From UHGV virus genome UHGV-1911926: 16,028 nucleotides of DNA. One strand, 5' to 3'. The stretch is from a virus. The notes beneath the pieces are model-generated. The model did not search any database. It had not been told where the DNA came from and saw nothing but the letters and a program-made list of their open reading frames with translations. Position 1 is the first letter of the stretch, and each line of letters begins with the position of its first letter. Below are positions 3,549-13,131 of the stretch, piece after piece. The translations under genes were made by a program, and so were the position numbers.

Positions 3549-3606
3549 TTGATTTTATATTGGCGAGGTGACGGGAGTTAAGTAGAATTGCTGCGGGTGC
3601 TTGAGG

Positions 3607-3642
3607 CTATCTGCCTCAGGCATGAACACCAAAGGCAGATAG
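3607..3642 (+). other. Perfect 10-bp inverted repeat (CTATCTGCCT / AGGCAGATAG) with 16-nt loop, upstream of hok
   Basis: Seen directly; no U-tract follows, so a regulatory or mRNA-folding element rather than a terminator. Confidence 0.4.
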
Positions 3643-3763
3643 AGAAAAGCCCCAGTTAATATTACGCGTCCTGCAAGACGCTTAACATTAATCTGAGGCT
3701 CAATCTATGAACGGCAAATCTAGGTTAGCCTCTTACGTGCCGAAAGGCAAGGAGAAGCAGGCT

Positions 3764-3919
3764 ATGAAGCAGCAAAAGGCGATGTTAATCGCCCTGATCG
3801 TCATCTGTTTAACCGTCATAGTGACGGCACTGGTAACGAGGAAAGACCTCTGCGAGGTACGAATCCGAACCGGCCAGACGGAGGTCGCTGTCTTCACAGT
3901 TTACGAACCTGAGGAGTAA
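3764..3919 (+). CDS. hokD: Hok/Gef-family type I toxin (51 aa; MKQQKAMLIALIVICLTVIVTALVTRKDLCEVRIRTGQTEVAVFTVYEPEE), HokD/RelF-like
   Basis: Protein is near-identical to my recollection of E. coli HokD/RelF (single transmembrane helix, conserved C-E-V/R-T-G-Q-T-E-V-A motif). The ORF track shows an in-frame upstream extension from 3707; ATG 3764 is preceded by AAGGAG at 3745-3750. Confidence 0.85.
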   Translation: MKQQKAMLIALIVICLTVIVTALVTRKDLCEVRIRTGQTEVAVFTVYEPEE

Positions 3920-4366: not shown

Positions 4367-5496
4367 GTGCGAGTATTACTTCGACCTGTTCTGGTACCGG
4401 AACTCGGGCTGGTGATCGTTAAGCCGGGCCGTGAATCCATGCCGGTATTCCACAATACCCGGGTACTGGTGGAGCCGGAACCGAAAAGCATGCGTAATCT
4501 GCCGTCCGGGGTTGTTCCTGCCGTTCGCCAGCCGCTAGTGGAAGACAAAACATTGCTGCCGTTTTTCAGTAACGCACGGGTGATTCGTGCTGCTGGTGGT
4601 GCTGGTGCATTGTCTGACTGGCTGTTGCGCCATATTAAATCCTGCCAGTGGCCACACGGCGATTATCATCACAGCGAAACCGTCATTCACCGTTATGGTA
4701 CCGGCGCAATGGTGTTGTGCTGGCACTGCGACAACCAGCTGCGTGACCAGACATCCGAATCACTCGAGCAACTTGCTCATCAAAACCTGTCAGCATGGAT
4801 GATTGACGTCATACTCCATGCAATGAATGGCTCGCAGGAACGGGAATTATCGCTGGCTGAATTATCCTGGTGTGCGGTCCGCAATCAGGTGGCGGACGCG
4901 CTACCGGAAGCGGTATTACGTCGTTCGCTGGGGTTGCGTGCGGAAAAAATCCGCTCAATGTACCGTGAAAGCGACATCGTACCGGGAGAGCAGACCGCCA
5001 CCAGCATACTGAAGCAGCGCACAAAAAATCTTGCGCCGCTGCCTCACGCCCACCAGCAAAACCCGCCACAGGAAGAGNNNNNNNNNNNNNNNNNNNNNNN
5101 NNNNNNNNNNNNNNNNNNNNNNNNNNNNNNNNNNNNNNNNNNNNNNNNNNNNNNNNNNNNNNNGTCAGCATTGCCGTTGATCCTGAGTCTCCGGAATCTT
5201 TCATGAAACGACCTAAACGTCGCCGCTGGGTTAACGAGAAATACACACGCTGGGTGAAGACACAGCCGTGTGCGTGTTGTGGTAAGCCAGCCGACGATCC
5301 CCATCACCTGATTGGTCATGGTCAGGGCGGAATGGGGACAAAATCTCACGATATTTTCACGCTACCGCTGTGTCGGGAGCATCACAACGAGCTTCATGCG
5401 GATCCTCTGGCGTTCGAAGAAAAGCATGGTTCTCAGGTTGATTTAATTTTTCGTTTTCTTGATCACGCCTTTGCAACTGGCGTGCTTGGGTAAAAG
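4367..5496 (+). CDS. DUF968-like (YdfU-like) prophage protein with C-terminal Cys/His cluster (CACCGK...HHLIGH...CREHHNELH); interrupted by an assembly gap
   Basis: GTG 4367 preceded by GGAGG at 4356-4360. Open frame to the N-run; a second open frame resumes right after the gap and runs to 5496. The frame differs across the gap (gap length presumably arbitrary). Family call from memory of Qin ydfU context. Confidence 0.65.
5078..5163. other. Assembly gap (86 N)
   Basis: Run of N in the sequence. Confidence 1.
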
Positions 5497-5505
5497 AGGT
5501 GACTG

Positions 5506-5880
5506 ATGCTCATAGATTTGGTTTTACCTTACCCGCCGACGGTGAACACTTACTGGCGACGCCGTGGCAGCACATATTTTATCTCGGAGGAGGGAAAGCG
5601 TTATCGCCGGGCTGTGGCGCTTATTGTTCGCCAGCAGCGGCTGAAATTAAGCCTGTCCGGAAGGCTGGCGATAAAGGTGATTGCAGAGCCACCGGATAAG
5701 CGTCGTCGCGACCTGGACAATATCCTGAAAGCACCGCTGGATGCGCTGACGCATGCGGGAGTGTTAATGGACGATGAGCAGTTTGATGAAATCAATATCG
5801 TTCGTGGTCAGCCAGTATCTGGTGGACGTATGGGGGTGAAGATTTACCCCATAATGCATGAAGAGCAGGTCAAAAAATGA
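5506..5880 (+). CDS. rusA: RusA-family Holliday junction resolvase
   Basis: 124-aa product with the PDKRRRDLDNILKAPLDALTHAG motif resembling E. coli RusA ([23 protein letters not shown]); AGAGG RBS at 5494-5498. Confidence 0.85.
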   Translation: MLIDLVLPYPPTVNTYWRRRGSTYFISEEGKRYRRAVALIVRQQRLKLSLSGRLAIKVIAEPPDKRRRDLDNILKAPLDALTHAGVLMDDEQFDEINIVRGQPVSGGRMGVKIYPIMHEEQVKK

Positions 5881-6698
5881 AACTGGAAGATTTACCGAAA
5901 TACTACTCCCCAAAATCCCCTGGCCTGACCGATGCATCGGCCTCAACGTCAAAAGATGCGCTGAGTATCACTGATGTGATGGCCGCGCAGGGCATGACAC
6001 AGAATCGGGCTGAGATGGGGTTTTCTGCGTTCCTGGGGAAAATGGGCATCAGTATGAATGACAGGGCGCGGGCAACAGAATTACTGGCAGATTATGCACT
6101 CAGTCGGTGCGATCGTGTGGCGGCGTTGAGAAAACTTCCGGCAGAAATAAAACCGGTAGTGATGCGCATTATGGCTTCGTATGCGTTTGAAGATTATGCC
6201 CGTAGCGCGGCGAGCAAAAAACAGTGCCCTTGCTGTCACGGAAAAAAATTTATTGAAAGCGAGGTTTTTACAAACAAGATCCAGTATCCGGATGGTAAGC
6301 CACCAGTGTGGGCAAAGTGCACAAAAGGCGTGTATCCGTCTTACTGGGAAGAATGGAAAAAAGTCAGGGAGGTGGTAAAAGTTGCCTGTCCGGAGTGTGG
6401 CGGAAAGGGTGAGGTTTCCACCGCCTGTAAGGATTGCCGTGGGCGTGGTGTCGCCATTCATCGTGAAGAGTCGGTAAAACGTGGTATGCCTGTTATCAGA
6501 GATTGCCAGCGTTGTGGTGGTCGTGGCTGTGAAAGGCTGCCATCAACGGAGGCATTTAATGCCATATGCAAAGTGACGAGTGCTATCACGCTTGATACGT
6601 GGAAAAAATCAGTGAAACGCTTTTACGATACGTTGGTGGTTCGGTTTGACATTGAAGAGGCATGGGCGGAGCGGCAGTTAAAGAGGGTAACGCGATAG
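5877..6698 (+). CDS. Putative late-gene antiterminator Q (QuuQ/phage-82-like), with four CxxC-x-G-type zinc-finger motifs
   Basis: Start overlaps the rusA stop (ATGA). Position between rusA and a promoter/terminator pair is the canonical Q location. Motifs CPCCHGKKF, CPECGGKGE, CKDCRGRGV, CQRCGGRGC. Family assignment is inference. Confidence 0.5.
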   Translation: MKLEDLPKYYSPKSPGLTDASASTSKDALSITDVMAAQGMTQNRAEMGFSAFLGKMGISMNDRARATELLADYALSRCDRVAALRKLPAEIKPVVMRIMASYAFEDYARSAASKKQCPCCHGKKFIESEVFTNKIQYPDGKPPVWAKCTKGVYPSYWEEWKKVREVVKVACPECGGKGEVSTACKDCRGRGVAIHREESVKRGMPVIRDCQRCGGRGCERLPSTEAFNAICKVTSAITLDTWKKSVKRFYDTLVVRFDIEEAWAERQLKRVTR

Positions 6699-6703
6699 TG
6701 TTG

Positions 6704-6731
6704 TTGATTTTTCCCGAATCTGTGGTAAATT
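6704..6731 (+). promoter_or_regulatory. Candidate late promoter (pR'-like): TTGATT, 16-nt spacer, TGgTAAATT
   Basis: Sigma70-like hexamers with extended -10 TG, immediately downstream of the Q-like gene. Confidence 0.3.
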
Positions 6732-6780
6732 TGCTCTAACGATGGGCGTTTTATGCCTGACGTTAGAAGATTTTTTACAC

Positions 6781-6803
6781 CCCGCCGCCTGGCGGGTTTT
6801 TTA
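6781..6803 (+). terminator. Intrinsic terminator (CCCGCC-GCCT-GGCGGG + TTTTTT), tR'-like
   Basis: Perfect 6-bp GC stem with U-tract about 50 nt downstream of the candidate late promoter; homologous copy at 11298..11319. Confidence 0.6.
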
Positions 6804-6922: not shown

Positions 6923-7120
6923 ATGCTAAAACAGCAGGATATGACAGAAACCGCCAGAGTGGTGTTTAATGAATTAAGCGTTACCGACCCGGCGACAGTC
7001 GGGGAGATAGCGCAGAATACTTACCTTTCACGCGAACGCTGCCAGTTAATACTGACTCAGCTGGTTATGGCGGGTCTGGCAGACTATCAGTTCGGTTGTT
7101 ACAGACGCCTTCCGCAGTGA
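6923..7120 (+). CDS. Small hypothetical protein (65 aa), possible winged-helix/HTH; paralog of 11442..11645
   Basis: AAGGAAAAG RBS upstream of ATG 6923. Shares MLKQQDMTETA...RCQLILTQLV.AGLA with the second copy. Stop codon lies in the loop of a terminator hairpin. Confidence 0.5.
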   Translation: MLKQQDMTETARVVFNELSVTDPATVGEIAQNTYLSRERCQLILTQLVMAGLADYQFGCYRRLPQ

Positions 7121-7270: not shown

Positions 7271-8320
7271 ATGCTTAATACTGTAAAAATATCCAGTTGT
7301 GAGTTAATCAACGCCGACTGCCTGGAATTTATCCGGTCGTTACCCGAAAATTCTGTTGACCTGATAGTCACGGACCCGCCGTACTTTAAAGTGAAGCCTG
7401 AGGGCTGGGATAACCAGTGGAAGGGCGACGATGATTACCTGAAGTGGCTGGACCAGTGTCTGGCGCAGTTCTGGCGGGTGCTGAAACCTGCCGGAAGTCT
7501 TTACCTGTTCTGTGGTCATCGCCTGGCATCTGATATCGAAATCATGATGCGTGAACGCTTCAGTGTGCTGAACCATATTATCTGGGCGAAGCCGTCCGGA
7601 CGCTGGAACGGATGCAACAAGGAAAGCCTGCGGGCGTATTTCCCCGCCACAGAGCGCATTCTGTTCGCGGAACATTATCAGGGGCCGTATCGTCCGAAAG
7701 ATGCCGGGTATGCGGCGAAGGGCAGTGCACTGAAACAGCATGTGATGGCCCCGCTGATTTCTTACTTTCGTGATGCGCGCGCGGCCCTGGGGATAACGGC
7801 AAAACAGATTGCAGATGCCACAGGAAAGAAAAACATGGTGTCGCACTGGTTCAGTGCCAGTCAGTGGCAGCTACCGAATGAAAGCGATTATCTGAAATTA
7901 CAGGCGCTGTTTGCCCGGGTGGCAGAAGAGAAGCATCGGCGTGGTGAACTGGAAAAGCTCCACCACCAGCTGGTGGATACGTATACCTCACTGAACCGGC
8001 AGTATGCGGAGCTGCTGAGTGAATATAAACATCTGCGGCGGTATTTTGGCGTGACGGTGCAGGTGCCGTATACCGATGTGTGGACGCATAAACCGGTGCA
8101 GTTCTATCCCGGGAAACATCCGTGCGAAAAACCGGCAGAAATGCTGCAGCAGATAATCAGCGCAAGTAGCCGTCCTGGTGATCTGGTTGCGGATTTTTTC
8201 ATGGGGTCGGGTTCAACGGTAAAAGCGGCGATGGCACTGGGGCGTCGTGCGATTGGTGTTGAGCTGGAGACCGGACGTTTTGAGCAGACAGTCAGGGAAG
8301 TTCAGGATTTAATCGTTTGA
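7271..8320 (+). CDS. DNA methyltransferase, beta-class amino-MTase (DPPY motif IV near the N-terminus, FFMGSGST motif I near the C-terminus); likely N6-adenine (or N4-cytosine)
   Basis: 349-aa ORF with [10 protein letters not shown] and [10 protein letters not shown] motifs; motif order IV then I defines the beta class. Confidence 0.85.
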   Translation: MLNTVKISSCELINADCLEFIRSLPENSVDLIVTDPPYFKVKPEGWDNQWKGDDDYLKWLDQCLAQFWRVLKPAGSLYLFCGHRLASDIEIMMRERFSVLNHIIWAKPSGRWNGCNKESLRAYFPATERILFAEHYQGPYRPKDAGYAAKGSALKQHVMAPLISYFRDARAALGITAKQIADATGKKNMVSHWFSASQWQLPNESDYLKLQALFARVAEEKHRRGELEKLHHQLVDTYTSLNRQYAELLSEYKHLRRYFGVTVQVPYTDVWTHKPVQFYPGKHPCEKPAEMLQQIISASSRPGDLVADFFMGSGSTVKAAMALGRRAIGVELETGRFEQTVREVQDLIV

Positions 8321-8369: not shown

Positions 8370-8445
8370 GGCCCTTTAGCTCAGTGGTGAGAGCGAGCGA
8401 CTCATAATCGCCAGGTCGCTGGTTCAAATCCAGCAAGGGCCACCA
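8370..8445 (+). tRNA. tRNA with CAU anticodon (Ile2-lysidine or Met), ileZ-like
   Basis: Manual fold: acceptor GGCCCTT/AAGGGCC, D-arm GCTC..GAGC, anticodon loop CTCATAA, T-arm GCTGG-TTCAAAT-CCAGC, discriminator A, encoded CCA. Confidence 0.8.
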
Positions 8446-8452
8446 TCACATA

Positions 8453-8529
8453 CCGCCATTAGCTCATCAGGAAAGAGCGCCAGCCTTCGAAGCTGGTTGC
8501 GCGGAGTTCGGGTCCCCGAAGGCGGTCCA
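8453..8529 (+). tRNA. tRNA-Arg (UCG anticodon), atypical
   Basis: Manual fold: anticodon stem CCAGC/GCTGG with loop CTTCGAA, D-arm GCTC..GAGC. Acceptor has one A-A mismatch, T-stem one A-C mismatch, T-loop TTCGGGT lacks the usual A58. Encoded CCA. Confidence 0.55.
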
Positions 8530-8542
8530 TTATCTGTATCCT

Positions 8543-8619
8543 GCGTTGTTAGCTCAGCCGGACAGAGCAATTGCCTTCTAAGCAATCGGTCACTGGTTCG
8601 AATCCAGTACAACGCGCCA
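8543..8619 (+). tRNA. tRNA-Arg (UCU anticodon), argO-like
   Basis: Manual fold: acceptor GCGTTGT/ACAACGC, anticodon stem ATTGC/GCAAT with loop CTTCTAA, T-arm ACTGG-TTCGAAT-CCAGT, discriminator G, encoded CCA. Confidence 0.85.
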
Positions 8620-8664
8620 CACTTATTTTCCCTGGCTCGCTTTTGCGGGCTTTTTTTTAAATGT

Positions 8665-8879
8665 CTCACAATTCAGGCGGTTGACTGTTGTCTGGTTTGC
8701 GGGGAGTTTGTTAAAAGAAACTGGCATGGTGAATCCCCCTGTGCGGAGGGGCAATCAGCGAGTAGGTATATGGGATAATCGCGGATTCAGGTGCTGGTAC
8801 TGAATTCACCGGGAGGCACCCGGCACCATGCAATGGCACATAGCGCCACTCTCCAGCCCCTCTCCGGAGGGGCTTTTCT
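8665..8879 (+). repeat. Non-coding module A (CTCACAATTCAG..TTGAC..GCATGGTGAATCCCCCTG.GCGGAGGGGC..-10-like..CACCGGGAGGCACCCGGCACCATG..terminator CCCCTC-TCCG-GAGGGG+CTTTTCT at 8857-8879)
   Basis: Homologous to module B at 9133..9366; conserved hairpins and terminator, no conserved ORF. Confidence 0.5.
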
Positions 8880-9068
8880 GTGCCGGATACATCACAGTTT
8901 CTGGAACCTTAGGTACTACAGTATCAGTCAGGGTGCTATATTTTCAGATGTGATGAAAGCCTGTCAGCAGGCAGGGCGTATCGGAAATGACCCAGTAGAG
9001 AAAACGTTGACTCAGATACCGGTGCTGAGTTACCGGGAAACCGGCATCACATGACCGCTATCCTTCCA

Positions 9069-9096
9069 GGCCCATCCGCTCCGGTGGGCCTTTTTA
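9069..9096 (+). terminator. Intrinsic terminator (GGCCCA-loop-TGGGCC + TTTTTA)
   Basis: Seen directly between the two non-coding modules. Confidence 0.5.
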
Positions 9097-9132
9097 CTGC
9101 AGAAAACAGGTTCCCCGTTAAATGCTATGTTG

Positions 9133-9366
9133 CTCACAATTCAGTAAGTTGACAGTTGCCTGTCAGACTGGGCATTTGTTAAAAAAATTTCGCATGGTGA
9201 ATCCCCCTGAGCGGAGGGGCGACTGGTGACGGTATAATCTCTGATTATCAAAACGAGAATGACGCGGGTTTAGTGGCACCGGGCTGAACTCACCGGGAGG
9301 CACCCGGCACCATGTGCATGATGATACAGATACGCGGCTTTAGCCCCTCTCCGGAGGGGTTTTCTT
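9133..9366 (+). repeat. Non-coding module B, paralog of module A; contains TTGACA (9149-9154), consensus TATAAT (9233-9238) and terminator CCCCTC-TCCG-GAGGGG+TTTTCTT (9344-9366)
   Basis: Alignable by eye to 8665..8879. Confidence 0.5.
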
Positions 9367-9372
9367 GTGGGC

Positions 9373-9401
9373 AAAAAAAGCCCGCGCTGGGAGACGCGGG
9401 C
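9373..9401 (-). terminator. Minus-strand intrinsic terminator (A-run on the plus strand followed by GCCCGCG-loop-CGCGGGC)
   Basis: Read on the minus strand this is a GC hairpin followed by a T-tract; sits back-to-back with the plus-strand terminator at 9344-9366. Confidence 0.45.
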
Positions 9402-9594
9402 GGCAAGGAATAAACAATAAAACGTGAAGTAATATTTCAGCTGGCGAATAATACCCCATAGTAATCACTCTGCGCAACTGCGCGGTCTTTTTCGAATTGC
9501 GGGCTGTCGTCTCTCTTCTGCCATTGTCCTGTAACTTCCGGACTTCAGCCCGCTCCTTATTTTACTCACAATATTATCCCGGCCGGGAGGATTC

Positions 9595-9822
9595 ATGGCA
9601 TTTAAACACTATGACGTGGTCAGGGCGGTATCGCCGTCAGACCTTGCGAAACGACTGACACAAAAACTGAAGGAGGGCTGGCAGCCGTTTGGTAGTCCGG
9701 TGGCCATAACCCCTTATACCCTGATGCAGGCGATTGCAGCAGAAGGTGATGTGGTGGTCAGTGGTGCAACTGAGCCGGATTGGTACTACGTCATCGTACT
9801 GGCCCGGCATTCCAGGCCATAA
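9595..9822 (+). CDS. Small hypothetical phage protein (75 aa)
   Basis: GGGAGG at 9582-9587 with ATG 9595; no family recognised. Confidence 0.5.
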   Translation: MAFKHYDVVRAVSPSDLAKRLTQKLKEGWQPFGSPVAITPYTLMQAIAAEGDVVVSGATEPDWYYVIVLARHSRP

Positions 9823-10090
9823 AAGACAGTCTGGCAGTGGGACTAAATGCACTGACGCTGATGGATATTACCAAAAATGTAACGTATGGCGTTGAGATAG
9901 AAAGTCTGGCGCTGGAGATAAATGCACCGGCATCATCATAAAAAGTGAGCCAGTCAAATGGAAGGTATCGTTAAACTCACCGGTAGTGTCAGTGGGTCGT
10001 CTGAGACGCTTGCATGAGTTATCAGAGCCATCAGTAGTTAACTGGTGGCTTTTTTATTGTTTTCAGCTTCCGGATAACGGGAGACGGGGT

Positions 10091-10290
10091 ATGGACCAGA
10101 TGGAAAAAATCACAACAGGTGTGTCATACACCACGTCAGCGGTGGGAACGGGCTACTGGTTCCTGCAGTTGCTGGACAGGGTTTCCCCGTCTCAGTGGGC
10201 GGCAATAGGCGTGCTGGGGAGTCTGCTGTTTGGGCTGCTGACATATCTGACTAACCTGTATTTCAAAATCAGAGAGGACCGTCGTAAGGC
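10091..10290 (+). CDS. Class II (S21-like) pinholin, 3'-truncated by the assembly gap
   Basis: [66 protein letters not shown] is paralogous to the holin at 12916..13131; ATG 10091 preceded by GGGAGACGGGG. The reading frame runs into the N-run. Confidence 0.6.
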
Positions 10291-10300
10291 NNNNNNNNNN
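10291..10300. other. Assembly gap (10 N), likely a scaffold join of unknown true length
   Basis: Run of N; the flanking genes are both truncated and not in a biologically expected order. Confidence 1.
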
Positions 10301-10640
10301 ACGTTGGGGGGCATGGGTGGCAAATAATCACGAGGATGTCACCTGGTCGTCTATTGCTGCAGGATTTAAAGGACTAATCCCTTCAAAAGTAAAATCCCGC
10401 CCGCAATGTTGTGACGATGATGCGATGATCATTTGTGGGTGCATGGCTCGCCTGAAAAAGAACAACAGCGATTTGCACGATTTATTAGTGGATTATTATG
10501 TAGGTGGTATGACGTTTATGGCGCTTGCCCGTAAACATGGGCGTTCTGATTGCTGGGTTGGGCGTTTATTGCAAAAGGCTGAAGGTGTAGTTGATGGCAT
10601 GTTAATGATGTTAGAAATTGAGCTAGAGATGGATCGTTAG
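10301..10640 (+). CDS. Antiterminator Q, QuuD-like, 5'-truncated by the gap
   Basis: Frame is open from the first base after the N-run ([53 protein letters not shown]...); matches my recollection of DLP12 QuuD. The track start at 10317 (GTG) is internal. Confidence 0.65.
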
Positions 10641-10682
10641 AAGACCTCTTATTGAGGGGGTAATTGAATCAGTTTAATGTGT

Positions 10683-10712
10683 GGGGAGTCGATTTATTCT
10701 CCCCATTTTATT
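10683..10712 (+). terminator. Hairpin GGGGAG-loop-CTCCCC followed by ATTTTATTT
   Basis: Seen directly between the Q fragment and the convergent lipoprotein gene. Confidence 0.4.
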
Positions 10713-10724
10713 TAATTAATTTAC

Positions 10725-11171
10725 TTAAGGTTTTAATTCATCAAGACGTTGTTGGATAGTGTTTTTGCTTGCGTTGTCTGTTATAGCCATTTGTTGTACT
10801 TGCCCCATTGCCATTTGAGTTTCCATCCACATATCGGCCCACACTTTTGTATCGTTATTAACTTGAGCGATAGTAAATCTGACTTTTGATACCGGGGTTG
10901 TTGAATAGGCATTGCCGATTAACATTTGTCCAAAAACAGCAGACCCGCCTTCCAGTTCTTTACCACATATAACACTGCTGTTATCAGCGTTGTAAATTAT
11001 CAACCCTCTACTATTGCAGTAATTCACAAGGGCATCTTTGACTTTATCTTTTGTCGTATTTTGATAAACCCCCTCAGGTTTTCCTGATTGAGTTTTTTTT
11101 ATCAATGGTACGGAAGAAGTACAACCTGAAATGATAGTTGCGCTAAGTAATAGTACAGTCATTTTATTCAT
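10725..11171 (-). CDS. Putative lipoprotein (148 aa; signal peptide with lipobox IISGC), AT-rich moron
   Basis: Minus-strand ORF with N-terminal MNKMTVLLLSATIISGC; lower GC than surrounding phage genes. Confidence 0.65.
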   Translation of the reverse strand: MNKMTVLLLSATIISGCTSSVPLIKKTQSGKPEGVYQNTTKDKVKDALVNYCNSRGLIIYNADNSSVICGKELEGGSAVFGQMLIGNAYSTTPVSKVRFTIAQVNNDTKVWADMWMETQMAMGQVQQMAITDNASKNTIQQRLDELKP

Positions 11172-11297
11172 GTTTCTTATCCATTGTTAAGGGCATACCT
11201 ACACAATTATTTTTATTGGAGATGAATAATCAACCGTTTACAATCGTAAAAAATCAAATATGCTGTTAAGAGTGGTTACTTCGCCACACAACTTAAA

Positions 11298-11319
11298 CCC
11301 GCCGCTGAGCGGTTTTTTT
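11298..11319 (+). terminator. Intrinsic terminator (GCCGC-TGA-GCGGT + TTTTTTT), homolog of 6781..6803
   Basis: Seen directly; the downstream ~120 bp is alignable to 6800..6922. Confidence 0.5.
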
Positions 11320-11441
11320 GTACCTGTAAACTTGGTGCAGTACAGTAAACACGCTGGTGGTCGTGAATACTGACCTTTTATCTTGCTGGCTTTTTAGACA
11401 AGAGTTATTGGTATGTCATGTTAACCAGAAGGGAAAAAGAC

Positions 11442-11645
11442 ATGCTAAAACAGCAAGATATGACAGAAACCGCCGCCGCAGTCCTTCATTTCTTACCTGC
11501 TGACAAGTGGGTAACGCCACGCATGATGACGAGAACTACCGGAGTAAGCGAAGCCCGGTGCCAGTTAATACTGACTCAGTTAGTTCTGGCGGGTCTGGCG
11601 AAGGATAACGGCGGATACGGGAATAAATTCAGACGCTGCCAGTAA
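11442..11645 (+). CDS. Small hypothetical protein, paralog of 6923..7120
   Basis: Start chosen at the second ATG (MLKQQDMTETA) by analogy with copy 1; RBS AGAAGGGAAAAAG. Stop lies in a hairpin loop as in copy 1. Confidence 0.5.
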   Translation: MLKQQDMTETAAAVLHFLPADKWVTPRMMTRTTGVSEARCQLILTQLVLAGLAKDNGGYGNKFRRCQ

Positions 11646-11795
11646 TGGCGGTTTCCTGCTGTGAAAATGGGCGGCTGGTGGGTGTTGGTAGCACCTGCCA
11701 GCCATTCGCTCATGCTTACTGGTCACAAGCGAACCACGGCCCACTGCTTTAGCGCAAAAGCAGAGTGAGCCTACCAGAGTTACGCTTACTGATCC

Positions 11796-12848
11796 ATGAA
11801 AAATACTGTAAAAATAAACAGTGTTGATTTAATCAACGCTGATTGCCTGCATTTTATTCAGTCCCTGCCTGATGATTCCATTGACCTGATTGTTACCGAT
11901 CCGCCGTACTTCAAGGTGAAACCCAACGGCTGGGACAATCAGTGGAAAGGGGACGAAGATTACCTTAAGTGGCTGGACCACTGTCTGGCCCAGTTCTGGC
12001 GGGTGTTAAAACCTGCCGGAAGCCTTTACCTGTTCTGTGGGCATCGCCTGGCATCTGATATTGAGATCATGATGCGTGAACGTTTCAACGTGCTTAACCA
12101 TATCATCTGGGCGAAGCCGTCCGGACGTTGGAATGGGTGTAATAAAGAAAGTCTGCGCGCATATTTTCCTGCCACAGAGCGCGTTCTGTTTGCTGAACAT
12201 TACCAGGGGCCATATCGCGGCAAAAGTGACGGCTATGCGGCAAAAGAAAGGGAACTCAAACAGCACATAATGGCACCGCTGATATCGTATTTCAGGGATG
12301 CTCGTGCCGAACTGGGTATAACGGCAAAACAAATTGCCGAAGCCACAGGTAAGAAAAATATGGTTTCCCACTGGTTTGGTGCCAGTCAGTGGCAGTTGCC
12401 GAATGAGGCTGACTATCGGAAGTTACAGGCACTGTTTTCCCGTATAGCGGCAGAGAAGTTTCAGGAACAACAACTGGAACAACCACACCACCAGCTGGTG
12501 GCATCTTATGATTCACTGAATCGCAAATATTCTGAATTGCTGGATGAGTTTAAATCTCTCCGGCGCTATTTCTCCGTATCAGTCTCCGTGCCTTATACCG
12601 ATGTCTGGATGCATAAACCCGTTCAGTTCTACCCGGGTAAACATCCGTGTGAGAAACCGGCGGATATGCTCAGGCAAATAATCAATGCCAGTAGTCGACC
12701 TGGTGATCTGGTTGCTGATTTTTTTATGGGATCCGGTTCCACAATAAAAGCAGCAATGGCGCTGGGGCGTCGGGCCTTAGGTGTTGAGCTTGAGTCAGAG
12801 CGGTTTAACCAGACAGTGAAAGAGATAAACGAGCTGGTGGGGAAATAA
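11796..12848 (+). CDS. DNA methyltransferase, beta-class amino-MTase, paralog of 7271..8320
   Basis: DPPYF and FFMGSGST motifs; high identity to copy 1 with a divergent central segment (roughly residues 215-260). Confidence 0.85.
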
Positions 12849-12915
12849 TCTGGTGGCCACGTCAGGTGGCCTTTTTATTTCCATTACACAGCACCCGCAT
12901 CTGCGAGGTGGGGTT

Positions 12916-13131
12916 ATGAAATCCATGGATAAGTTAACAACGGGTGTCGCCTATGGCACCTCCGCAGGCAGTGCTGGCTACTGGTTTTTACAGTGGCTTG
13001 ATCAGGTCAGTCCGTCACAGTGGGCTGCGATTGGTGTACTGGGGAGTCTGGTTCTGGGCTTCCTGACTTATCTGACAAATCTGTACTTCAAAATCAGAGA
13101 AGACAAGCGTAAGGCTGCACGGGGAGAGTAA
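12916..13131 (+). CDS. S: Class II holin (phage 21 S21-type pinholin) with dual-start motif MKSMDK
   Basis: [71 protein letters not shown] matches my recollection of S21; RBS GAGGTGGGG. The track start 12853 is an upstream extension. Confidence 0.85.

Follow-up and report, generated by a model that had tools for sequence, protein, structure and literature searches.

What are the two repeated modules that follow the tRNA cluster in the virus genome UHGV-1911926, of which a single stretch of 16,028 nt (the window) was analysed here? The first-pass annotation, made from the letters alone, took them for two homologous, non-coding, structured units with terminators of their own, and called them candidate small RNA (sRNA) genes. 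Based on a pairwise alignment, the two units (A and B) are indeed homologous, with 80% mean column identity over 280 aligned columns. The Rfam/Infernal scan suggested there as a check returned full-length matches (model positions 1-206) to RF02076, STnc100, at 8695-8885 for unit A (136.3 bits, E 2e-30) and 9163-9372 for unit B (161 bits, E 8e-37), both above the curated gathering score of 47 bits. The two modules are copies of a catalogued prophage sRNA family, STnc100, which is related to PasD of pathogenic E. coli; as had been proposed, they are non-coding RNA genes, structurally conserved and each with its terminator, and the word "candidate" can be dropped, because the family is already in Rfam and in publications. 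The observation is thus real, but not new. Two is, however, an undercount, since a third, diverged copy (M, 8948-9097) sits in the spacer. Unit M reaches 30.1 bits, below the gathering score, and R1, our own covariance model of the core, recognised 104 copies, all three window units among them, in 88 sources that comprise the window, loci of phages and E. coli, and loci from genomes of Enterobacterales. The best explanation of the locus as a whole, which we regard as probable, is that three tandem genes of the STnc100/PasD family lie here, A and B canonical and M strongly diverged.

In EHEC EDL933, 11 copies of STnc100 have RNA-seq reads and one is confirmed by Northern blot (PMC5331693); PasD1 and PasD2 of EPEC were validated by Northern blot and Hfq RIL-seq (PMC8550237); and PasD and STnc100 have already been called structurally homologous (preprint 10.64898/2026.05.13.724894, Zhu, Shabalina and Storz 2026). 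RF02076 is entitled "Gammaproteobacterial sRNA STnc100" and was first listed in Salmonella. No Rfam match overlapping with AsxR or AgvB was found in the window or beside stx2B, and a literature search for EcOnc13 returned nothing under that name. The features of the three genes, with the terminator that adjoins them, are as follows.

8652-8673 (+; element 8652-8676): unit A putative CRP-like 22-mer, perfect right half TCACA, centre -61.5 from the presumed +1
8665-8676 (+): unit A upstream box CTCACAATTCAG, conserved in all units, diverged homologues included
8681-8685 (+): unit A TTGAC box, not conserved in diverged homologues
8688-8717 (+): unit A predicted promoter; -35 TTGTCT 8688-8693, 17-nt spacer, -10 TTAAAA/TAAAAG 8711-8717, TG 8709-8710
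8724-8880 (+): STnc100 RNA A, predicted length ~157 nt; Rfam 136.3 bits; R1 92.8 bits at 8724-8831
8724-8731/8824-8831 (+): RNA A helix P1
8736-8740/8747-8751 (+): RNA A hairpin Pa, CCCCU/AGGGG
8754-8760 with 8792-8798 (+): RNA A pseudoknot strands a and a'
8783-8790/8800-8807 (+): RNA A helix b
8809-8813/8819-8823 (+): RNA A hairpin Pc, CCGGG-AGGCA-CCCGG
8832-8854 (+): RNA A tail, AAUGGCACAUAGCGCCACUCUCCAG
8855-8874 plus U-tract (+): RNA A terminator, from the terminator scan
8934-8942 (+): unit M predicted promoter; extended -10, TG-C-TATATT
8948-9097 (+): STnc100-like RNA M, predicted length ~149 nt; Rfam 30.1 bits, E 4e-5; R1 33.3 bits, E 6e-5
within 8948-9097 (+): RNA M helix P1, (A)UGUGAUG/CAUCACA(U), and hairpin Pa, GCCUG-UCAG-CAGGC
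within 8948-9097 (+): RNA M pseudoknot GUAUCGG/CCGGUGC, helix b GACUCAG/CUGAGUU and hairpin Pc CCGG-GAAA-CCGG
RNA M tail (+): GACCGCUAUCCUUCCA
9068-9091 plus U5 (+): RNA M terminator, from the terminator scan
9120-9141 (+): unit B putative CRP-like 22-mer AAATGCTATGTTGCTCACAATT, consensus match 16/22, centre -61.5
9133-9144 (+; element 9120-9144): unit B upstream box CTCACAATTCAG, conserved in all units
9149-9153 (+): unit B TTGAC box, not conserved in diverged homologues
9156-9185 (+): unit B predicted promoter; -35 TTGCCT 9156-9161, 17-nt spacer, -10 TTAAAA/TAAAAA 9179-9185, TG 9177-9178
9192-9366 (+): STnc100 RNA B, predicted length ~175 nt, core 9192-9315; Rfam 161 bits; R1 72.4 bits
9192-9199/9308-9315 (+): RNA B helix P1
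9204-9219 (+): RNA B hairpin Pa, CCCCU/AGGGG
in core 9192-9315 (+): RNA B pseudoknot CUGGUG/CACCGG and helix b GGGUUUAG/CUGAACUC
9293-9307 (+): RNA B hairpin Pc, CCGGG-AGGCA-CCCGG
9316-9341 (+): RNA B tail, GCAUGAUGAUACAGAUACGCGGCUUUAG
9342-9361 plus U-tract (+): RNA B terminator, from the terminator scan
9373-9401 (-; scan 9401-9380): intrinsic terminator that ends a convergent transcript

The core of the family is a covarying four-way junction (P1, Pa, b and Pc) with a loop-strand pseudoknot; it occurs across Enterobacterales and is often clustered. The Rfam structure lines, the folds of A and M, a constrained fold of B and the terminator scan all have P1 enclosing Pa, b and Pc, with the terminator after it. 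The minimum free energy (MFE) fold of RNA A reproduces P1, Pa, b, Pc and the terminator (z = -2.4), that of RNA M has the family architecture (z = -2.2), and the family fold of RNA B, as constrained and with the pseudoknot not counted, is at most 0.3 kcal/mol from its MFE. The two hairpins reported in each unit at first reading (8736-8751/9204-9219 and 8809-8823/9293-9307) are conserved, and the covariation analysis recommended at that stage bears out the structure among 104 homologues: 87.5% of the cells in the R1 matches are paired, versus 75.1% in shuffles and 43-46% when the partners are slid, the covariation score is 0.342 versus 0.146, and double-sided changes occur in 24 of 27 pairs. 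For the pseudoknot, which is not in the RF02076 model, the mean best-helix score is 14.87 versus 10.93 +/- 0.27 when strands are permuted among sequences, a value reached in none of 200 permutations. About 60 different strand pairs exist among the homologues, and five of the six pairs show double-sided changes even on a plain MAFFT alignment.

The start of the RNAs can be placed by comparison with PasD. The 5' end of PasD1 has been mapped to the first G of GCAUGGUG, which is the first base of the closing helix P1, and PasD1 is 173 nt long (Northern and RIL-seq), with its 3' end in the terminator U-tract. A conserved -35/-10 pair, aligned across units, lies immediately 5' of the PasD-type start. 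In A and B the predicted promoter reads TTGYCT, 17 nt, TG-extended TAAAAR; that of unit A aligns column for column with the PasD1 promoter (TTGACT-17-TTAAAA) and with diverged phage copies, and that of unit B likewise with PasD1 and phage homologues. An enrichment of promoter-like matches is also seen in other genera, 3-8 nt ahead of the core. With the +1 of RNA A presumably at the position given by the PasD1 5' end, this geometry gives predicted lengths of about 157, 149 and 175 nt, with the first hairpin inside the RNA, and not the 95-120 nt of the first-pass annotation. The RF02076 model begins about 29 nt upstream of the PasD-type 5' end and so covers the DNA that we read as promoter. GATAAT (8774-8779) and TATAAT (9233-9238), to which the shorter estimate had assigned a promoter role, are present, but they occupy non-homologous positions in a variable internal region, and the PasD1 5' end lies at P1. 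The TTGAC box, likewise, is found at both sites, but diverged homologues carry TTGATG or GGCGAT in its stead, and its distance to the -10 is 24-25 nt; the conserved element is TTGYCT, at 17 nt. Both the internal hexamers and the TTGAC box were rejected as promoter elements.

The upstream box recognised as common to both units does exist at 8665-8676 and 9133-9144. Judged by the CRP consensus, AAATGTGA-N6-TCACATTT, and by class I spacing, the CTCACAATT box may be a CRP half-site centred at -61.5. The putative site agrees with the consensus at 16 of 22 positions in B and the Stx2a copy and at 11 of 22 in A (weighted match 18/28), and its right half, TCACA, is invariant. No consistent CRP-like site was found in other genera, so that the feature is specific to the E. 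coli lineage.

The terminator scan found 22 terminators in comparison with 6.1 +/- 2.4 expected in shuffles, and it returned the strong intrinsic terminator that had been claimed for each unit (8855-8874 and 9342-9361). The U-tracts are UUUUCU in A, UUUUCUU in B and UUUUU in M; the short ones of A and B are poor for Hfq binding, and an Hfq-dependent sRNA would be expected to have about six or more U. Between core and terminator lies the tail, which is largely unpaired in the folds of A and M. In PasD1, the seed UGUGAG is located in the 3' tail, and PasD forms Hfq chimeras through that tail (PMC8550237). UGUGAG is absent from all three tails of the window, which have no seed in common with PasD or with one another and have no known targets. 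Targets inside the window were no better than those of shuffled tails (14, 31 and 18 of 60 shuffles were as good for A, M and B, respectively); one example is tail B against the Rz start region (-27.7 kcal/mol). When hfq is deleted, the log2 fold changes of PasD1 and PasD2 are -0.18 and +0.55, not significant (table S2 of PMC8550237), and this constancy suggests that the Hfq dependence of the family is weak.

Under the three-gene explanation, each gene would be separately transcribed from a weak sigma-70 promoter (M from an extended -10 only), with transcription starting at the first base of P1. The first 105-125 nt fold into the four-way junction, which is locked where the loop of helix b pairs with the strand 3' of Pa as a pseudoknot, and are followed by a variable, mostly unpaired tail of 16-28 nt and the intrinsic terminator. 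By homology with PasD, the tail may act in seed pairing with target mRNAs on Hfq, while the structured 5' domain would stabilise the RNA and may bind a further factor. In lysogens, expression would come from the genes' own promoters, possibly aided by cAMP-CRP; after induction, Q-modified polymerase from pR' (6704-6731) would read through all three terminators. The three genes are cargo of the prophage, placed after its tRNA genes and ahead of the lysis cassette.

Several features count against this explanation. Besides the short U-tracts of A and B, the unchanged PasD levels and the unrelated tails, some homologues in other genera have no terminator nearby and an ORF directly after them, and the stems and loops of Pa and Pc hardly vary between genera, which is left unexplained if the domain is a stabilising scaffold and no more. 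Alternatively, the conserved 5' core could be the functional part, an autonomous pseudoknotted module of 105-125 nt that binds a specific host or phage factor, protein or small ligand, as decoy, sponge or sensor, with multivalency from the tandem copies and with seed pairing only part of the function, secondary or absent. Invariant Pa and Pc beside freely covarying P1, b and pseudoknot are the pattern expected of a specific recognition surface. Copy number points the same way, with clusters of 3-7 copies in other genera and core modules that stand back to back on a Pantoea plasmid with no terminators between them (R1 finds five, and one weaker match). Some Rfam matches extend over the core alone (model positions 30-148), and PasD abundance is independent of Hfq. 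However, the core has no known partner or ligand, the neighbourhood shows no conserved protein gene (a KdgM-type porin, a holin, Ivy and a lipoprotein are encoded downstream in different cases), PasD does make its Hfq chimeras via the tail, and PasD is still abundant after loss of half of Pc. On balance we consider this alternative unlikely. If it were true, prophages would carry multivalent decoys or sensors in the stx slot in the form of tandem copies, of which there are three here and five or more in one Pantoea transcript.

Repeated structured modules, such as those of the Pantoea arrays, are also known from CsrB/RsmZ sponges and ToxI arrays, and type III antitoxins are pseudoknotted as well. 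This situation is different in STnc100, in which the modules are of 105-135 nt, as opposed to 20-40 nt, and each has its own terminator in the window. The GGA-in-loop pattern of CsrA motifs is absent from the STnc100 modules. A type III toxin-antitoxin system was rejected for the Pantoea arrays: the larger ORFs scanned nearby encode a C5 methylase, a DUF1133 protein and a resolvase, and include no toxin gene.

Returning to the explanation by three sRNA genes, the closest relatives are those of its own family. RF02076 members have P1, Pa, b, Pc, terminator and prophage context in common with units A and B. PasD1 and PasD2 of EPEC E2348/69 (EcOnc13 homologue in EHEC; Pearl Mizrahi et al. 2021, PMC8550237) have the same promoter geometry and the first bases GCAUGGUGAAUCC, and are like the units of the window in P1, Pa, pseudoknot, helix b, 3' tail, terminator and a place between Q and holin. 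In PasD, however, the 3' half of Pc is lost and the loop of Pa is shorter, and it scores only 37.7 bits with Rfam and 24 bits with R1; its copies are reported as distant from one another, whereas the STnc100 units here are in tandem. The homology is at the family level only, not near-identity. OmrA/OmrB, PrrF1/PrrF2 and Qrr are, like our units, adjacent homologous sRNA genes, each with promoter and terminator, in which one part is shared and another differs. In STnc100 the pseudoknotted 5' domain is conserved and the presumed seed variable, in contrast to OmrA/B, in which the seed is conserved.

The locus belongs to a lambdoid prophage of extraintestinal pathogenic (ExPEC) E. coli and is 100% identical to those of UTI89 and S88. 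With the phage tRNA cluster on one side and the lysis genes on the other, it fills the slot of stx in Shiga-toxin phages; unit B is the same copy that is found about 75 nt after stx2B in Stx2a phages. STnc100 occupies the exact Shiga-toxin cargo slot and is abundant in pathogens. At least a partial match to the region exists in 2869 of 5426 complete E. coli genomes, and in this sense the identification is an ordinary annotation result, a curated sRNA family in more than half of them. In RefSeq the region is unannotated or marked as a pseudogene fragment. The corrected gene model (5' end at P1, core plus variable tail, promoter, possible CRP site) and the pseudoknot provide testable handles on function.

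A lambda-like pR' (6704-6731; -10 TAAATT, AACGAT pause element) and tR' are present at 6704-6802, directly after Q (5877-6698), and the STnc100 units are therefore inside the late operon and are not its leader. Short pR'-tR' transcripts (lambda 6S RNA, and StxS of Stx phages) are late-region RNAs with an intrinsic terminator that is overridden by Q-modified polymerase, and in these respects the STnc100 units are like them. An identity of STnc100 with the pR'-tR' leader was rejected, because that element is the one at 6704-6802; the units are located 2 kb beyond it, past the methylase and tRNA genes, each with its own predicted promoter.

The same position could suggest that the units act in cis on the late operon and, instead of being independent genes, shape its transcript from the tRNAs to the lysis genes, be it as attenuators, as riboswitch-like terminators or as sites of processing (tRNA-like, RNase P/E). 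They follow directly on the tRNA cluster within the Q-dependent operon, in an order shared with Salmonella diarizonae and Pantoea, and their topology is cloverleaf-like, with Pc stacked directly on P1. In A and B, moreover, Pa and the terminator have identical 3' strands, and the alternative pairing that this allows is the one in the MFE fold of B. However, the Pa/terminator pairing is confined to the E. coli lineage, the terminators of other genera being unrelated to Pa, and in B the family fold and the MFE are equal in energy even before the pseudoknot is counted. ARAGORN and Rfam recognise only three true tRNAs (8370-8619), and the STnc100 units are neither tRNA nor tmRNA; a conserved promoter of its own precedes each unit, and the start of PasD1 is where the promoter predicts it. 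A riboswitch-like Pa/terminator switch in particular was rejected, as it would exist in E. coli-type copies only, with no conserved expression platform and with varying downstream genes. We therefore regard a cis-acting role as very improbable and retain the three separate sRNA genes.

The middle gene is the most diverged of these. Its predicted extended -10 aligns with TGTTAAAA of units A and B in the Rfam alignment and is invariant between the window and three phages, despite heavy divergence just upstream. Copy M is kept in the phages PhiR5_2, 813R8 and 640R1, in which the triple arrangement exists at 77-83% identity, and its Pa hairpin and terminator show compensatory changes between the window and those phages. 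Based on this retention and these changes, copy M is read as an RNA, not a protein, and the "third terminator" seen at first reading, placed at 9068-9091 by the scan, belongs to it. That the region partly codes for a small protein, the 55-aa hypothetical phrog_23557 annotated over unit M in some phages, is hardly credible: although ORF 8791-9054 matches phrog_23557 (E 7e-30) and the records of PhiR5_2 and vB_EcoS-640R1 have a 168-nt CDS at the corresponding position, the ATG of the phages is ATA in the window, the N-terminal half has many non-synonymous changes, four of the six changes in the codons over Pa are non-synonymous and yet preserve the RNA hairpin, the -10, core and terminator of M are conserved, and RefSeq annotates no intact CDS here. 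The 55-aa protein of some phage records over the middle copy is probably spurious.

The back-to-back minus-strand terminator of the first-pass annotation was also found by the scan, and it marks a separate small-RNA candidate (~9373-9450, minus strand) outside the STnc100 genes. The 3' 54 nt of this candidate match an EPEC RIL-seq sRNA candidate, E2348C_1409.E2348C_1408.IGR, with three substitutions and two single-base indels over the 52-nt EPEC sequence.

Three tandem genes of the STnc100 small RNA family, each with a structured core, a tail (from the closing helix P1 to the terminator) and a terminator, lie inside the Q-dependent late operon of the window. Pfam scans and ARAGORN identify this as the late region of a lambdoid prophage, with the following gene order:

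5506-5880, RusA
5877-6698, antiterminator Q (PF03589)
6923-7120, 65-aa ORF
7271-8320, DNA methylase
8370-8619, tRNA-Met(CAT), tRNA-Arg and tRNA-Arg
8650-9401, region under study (STnc100 units)
9595-9822, DUF1737
downstream of DUF1737, holin and lysis genes

The first-pass annotation had described two homologous structured modules in this region. These two (units A and B) are 80% identical on alignment, and each matches Rfam RF02076 (STnc100) over its full length, with 136.3 and 161 bits, respectively, against a gathering score of 47 bits. The boxes, hairpins and four terminators were all found where they had been placed, and the observation is genuine and well beyond chance. However, the supposed spacer holds a third STnc100 match (unit M; 8924-9097, 30.1 bits, E 4e-5, from a permissive Rfam scan), which terminates at what had been listed as a separate third terminator. 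The interpretation as structured sRNA genes was broadly correct, although the element had already been described as STnc100/PasD. The curated sRNA family STnc100 has 11 copies in EDL933 with RNA-seq reads, one of them Northern-confirmed (PMC5331693); it was found in the outer-membrane vesicles of STEC and lies about 75 nt 3' of stx2B (PMC12370729). The EPEC sRNAs PasD1 and PasD2, discovered by Hfq RIL-seq and Northern-confirmed (PMC8550237), are structural homologues of STnc100 (2026 preprint, 10.64898/2026.05.13.724894). Added here are a corrected gene model and the third, diverged copy, together with a covariation-supported pseudoknot, evidence that members of the family often cluster, and a candidate CRP site. 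An AsxR or AgvB identity was rejected by Rfam scans of the window and the stx2B-adjacent region, and a tRNA-like element by ARAGORN.

The GATAAT and TATAAT hexamers, proposed earlier as a shared -10, occupy non-homologous positions in the variable internal part of the RNA, and internal promoters were therefore rejected; the TTGAC box is 24-25 nt from the predicted -10 and is not kept in diverged copies. An alignment of the sequences 5' of all three window units, PasD1, the phage and Stx2a copies and a further locus (L095) recovered in the genome scan shows a conserved TTGYCT, aligned with TTGACT of PasD1, that stands 17 nt 5' of TTAAAA, or 18 nt 5' of TAAAAR with TG before it; the first P1 base is 7-8 nt downstream of this putative -10. 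Unit M has only an extended -10 (TGCTATATT, 8934-8942); the canonical -35/-10 pairs of homologues in other genera stop 3-8 nt short of the core. According to its RNA-seq-derived start, PasD1 (NC_011601 1060260-1060432) begins with the G of GCAUGGUGAAUCC, where the closing helix also begins; its 3' end is within the terminator U-tract, and its predicted seed, UGUGAG, is in the tail that separates this helix from the terminator. Based on the position of the -10 and the first P1 base, the following RNAs are predicted:

8724-8880, RNA A, about 157 nt
8948/8950-9097, RNA M, about 149 nt
9192-9366, RNA B, about 175 nt

Positions 1-29 of the Rfam model align to DNA read here as promoter. The CTCACAATT box is kept in all E. 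coli-type units, including M, and not in PasD1. If the box forms the right half of a CRP site, that candidate site would be centred at -61.5 relative to the inferred +1, where class I CRP sites classically lie, and it agrees with the consensus at 16/22 positions in B and the Stx2a copy and at 11/22 in A; from known CRP biology, we hypothesize that the box is a CRP half-site.

Unit M is a real diverged STnc100 copy, and not a protein gene, as judged from sequence comparison. The phages PhiR5_2, vB_EcoS-813R8 and vB_EcoS-640R1 keep the order of full, diverged and full copies, with only 77-83% identity to the window over the whole region, and in some of their records a 55-aa CDS (phrog_23557) is annotated over the middle unit. 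Protein coding was rejected because the window has ATA where this CDS has ATG, its N-terminal half is poorly conserved, and the hairpins and terminator are kept at the RNA level. In M, seven substitutions change the Pa hairpin from GCCUG-UCAG-CAGGC to UCUGCC-GGAA-GGCGGA with the hairpin retained, compensatory changes distinguish P1 (UGUGAUG/CAUCACA) from its counterpart in A and B (GCAUGGUG/CACCAUGC), the sole change in the pseudoknot replaces a G.U pair with A-U, and the terminator is retained through an indel and a substitution.

Homologues were gathered by one genome scan for the invariant hairpin, and a core model (R1) was then built. In a search set of 88 sources (the window, phage and E. 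coli loci, and Enterobacterales genome loci), R1 gave 104 matches, spanning Kosakonia, Enterobacter, Salmonella, Pantoea, Erwinia, Klebsiella, Raoultella, Cedecea and other genera and including A, B and M (92.8, 72.4 and 33.3 bits). In the alignment of these matches 87.5% of cells were paired, against 75.1% in shuffles and 43-46% with partners slid, the covariation score was 0.342 against 0.146, and 24 of the 27 pairs showed double-sided changes, in an alignment that was fitted to R1 and is thus biased toward structure; the outcome was the same with the slid controls and with an ordinary MAFFT alignment. Covariation is strong in P1 and helix b, whereas Pa (CCCCU.GUGCGG.AGGGG) and Pc (CCGGG.AGGCA.CCCGG) are almost invariant. 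A pseudoknot forms between the loop of helix b and the strand directly 3' of Pa, with these pairings:

unit A, AUCAGCG/UGCUGGU
unit B, CUGGUG/CACCGG
unit M, GUAUCGG/CCGGUGC
PasD1, AAUGAUC/GAUCAUU

Across 97 distinct homologues, with about 60 different strand pairs, the best-helix score averaged 14.87, against 10.93 +/- 0.27 when the 5' strands were permuted among sequences (observed value reached in 0/200), and on the MAFFT alignment five of the six pairs showed double-sided changes. The pseudoknot is absent from the RF02076 model, and the words "pseudoknot" and "junction" occur nowhere in the text of the preprint. Folding supports the family architecture, which the MFE folds of A and M give (z = -2.4 and -2.2) and which in B is at most 0.3 kcal/mol from the MFE, the pseudoknot not yet counted.

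The 801 bp at 8620-9420 are 100% identical to ExPEC chromosomes including UTI89, S88 and IHE3034; of 5426 complete E. coli genomes, 2869 match at least part of this stretch and 352 carry the entire arrangement. Stx2a phages have the order Q, 65-aa ORF, methylase, three tRNAs, stx2AB, one STnc100 copy (unit B), nanS-p and holin, and from this common backbone the STnc100 region therefore sits in the stx cargo slot. The order of tRNA gene(s) and then STnc100 recurs in Salmonella enterica subsp. diarizonae (L010 5491-5933) and Pantoea (L062 4378-4648), suggesting a conserved linkage. The tRNA at 8370-8445, tRNA-Met (CAU) by ARAGORN and tRNA-Ile in RefSeq for the identical UTI89 gene, is the ileZ-like phage tRNA; lysidine modification presumably leads to its being decoded as Ile.

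Homology with PasD suggests that in the lysogen each gene is transcribed independently, that its variable tail pairs with mRNAs on Hfq and that its 5' domain gives stability; after induction, Q-modified polymerase would pass all three terminators, as in established lambdoid biology. A rival kept alive is that the STnc100 core itself binds a factor, because several points weaken a straightforward Hfq-sRNA model: U-tracts are short, deletion of hfq leaves PasD levels unchanged (table S2), Pa and Pc are invariant, a Pantoea plasmid carries core modules back to back with no terminators, clusters of 3-7 copies exist in other sources, and some homologues are directly followed by an ORF, such as a lipoprotein or KdgM-type porin. 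Riboswitch-like switching with the terminator was rejected since the pairing is not conserved, and tail targets inside the window since pairing is at chance level. A late-operon leader was rejected because pR' and tR' lie at 6704-6802: directly after Q, the lambda-like late promoter pR' reads TTGATT, 16 nt, TAAATT and then TGCTCT-AACGAT, and tR' is the terminator CCCGCCGCCTGGCGGG-T6 (6781-6802). We take AACGAT to be the pause motif known from lambda pR'; the arrangement predicts a short pR'-tR' transcript, about 60-65 nt long, of the same kind as StxS and lambda 6S.

STnc100 core modules also form arrays in L082 (Pantoea sp. App145 plasmid pAPP145_2, minus strand 950-2010) and L062 (3116-4485); preceded by a DUF1133 gene and a C5 methylase, three and then two modules stand back to back, about 14-35 nt apart with no terminator between, and L062 has up to seven copies. 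In Kosakonia and relatives (L020, L050, L064, L067, L083, L094 and L111), a KdgM-family porin gene follows 80-200 nt downstream of a core subgroup with P1 GUGUGGUG/CACCACAC; a simple scan detected no terminator, and these cores may represent either a 5' leader or a neighbouring sRNA. In another genus, an Rfam match to the Hfq-binding RNA isrI lies between two STnc100 copies (L116 4609-4706); several families of prophage sRNA therefore share such islands. On the minus strand of the window lies a convergent small-RNA candidate (9373-9450) with its 3' end at the minus-strand terminator. The 54 nt at that end match the 52-nt EPEC Hfq RIL-seq candidate E2348C_1409.E2348C_1408.IGR with three substitutions and two single-base indels, the sequence also follows the STnc100 copy in Stx2a phage LC567838 (L002 4250-4330), and Rfam gave only a weak OmrA-B-like match (25 bits).

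Elsewhere in the window, a hok/sok type I toxin-antitoxin locus was found at 3595-3919, where the Rfam sok match (113 bits, 3595-3769) overlaps the hok ORF, named hokD in UTI89. DUF968 (4367-5493) is in two overlapping ORFs (279 and 96 aa), both matching PF06147, and is one 348-aa CDS in UTI89; the split may be a frameshift or a variant. At 9986-13131 lies a mosaic junction: a P21-type holin ORF (9986-10327) adjoins a Q fragment of another family (PF06530, 10317-10640) without its N-terminus, and beyond it lie a second methylase for DNA (11796-12848) and another holin (12853-13131). This insert, absent from UTI89, looks like a recombination of two lambdoid late regions.
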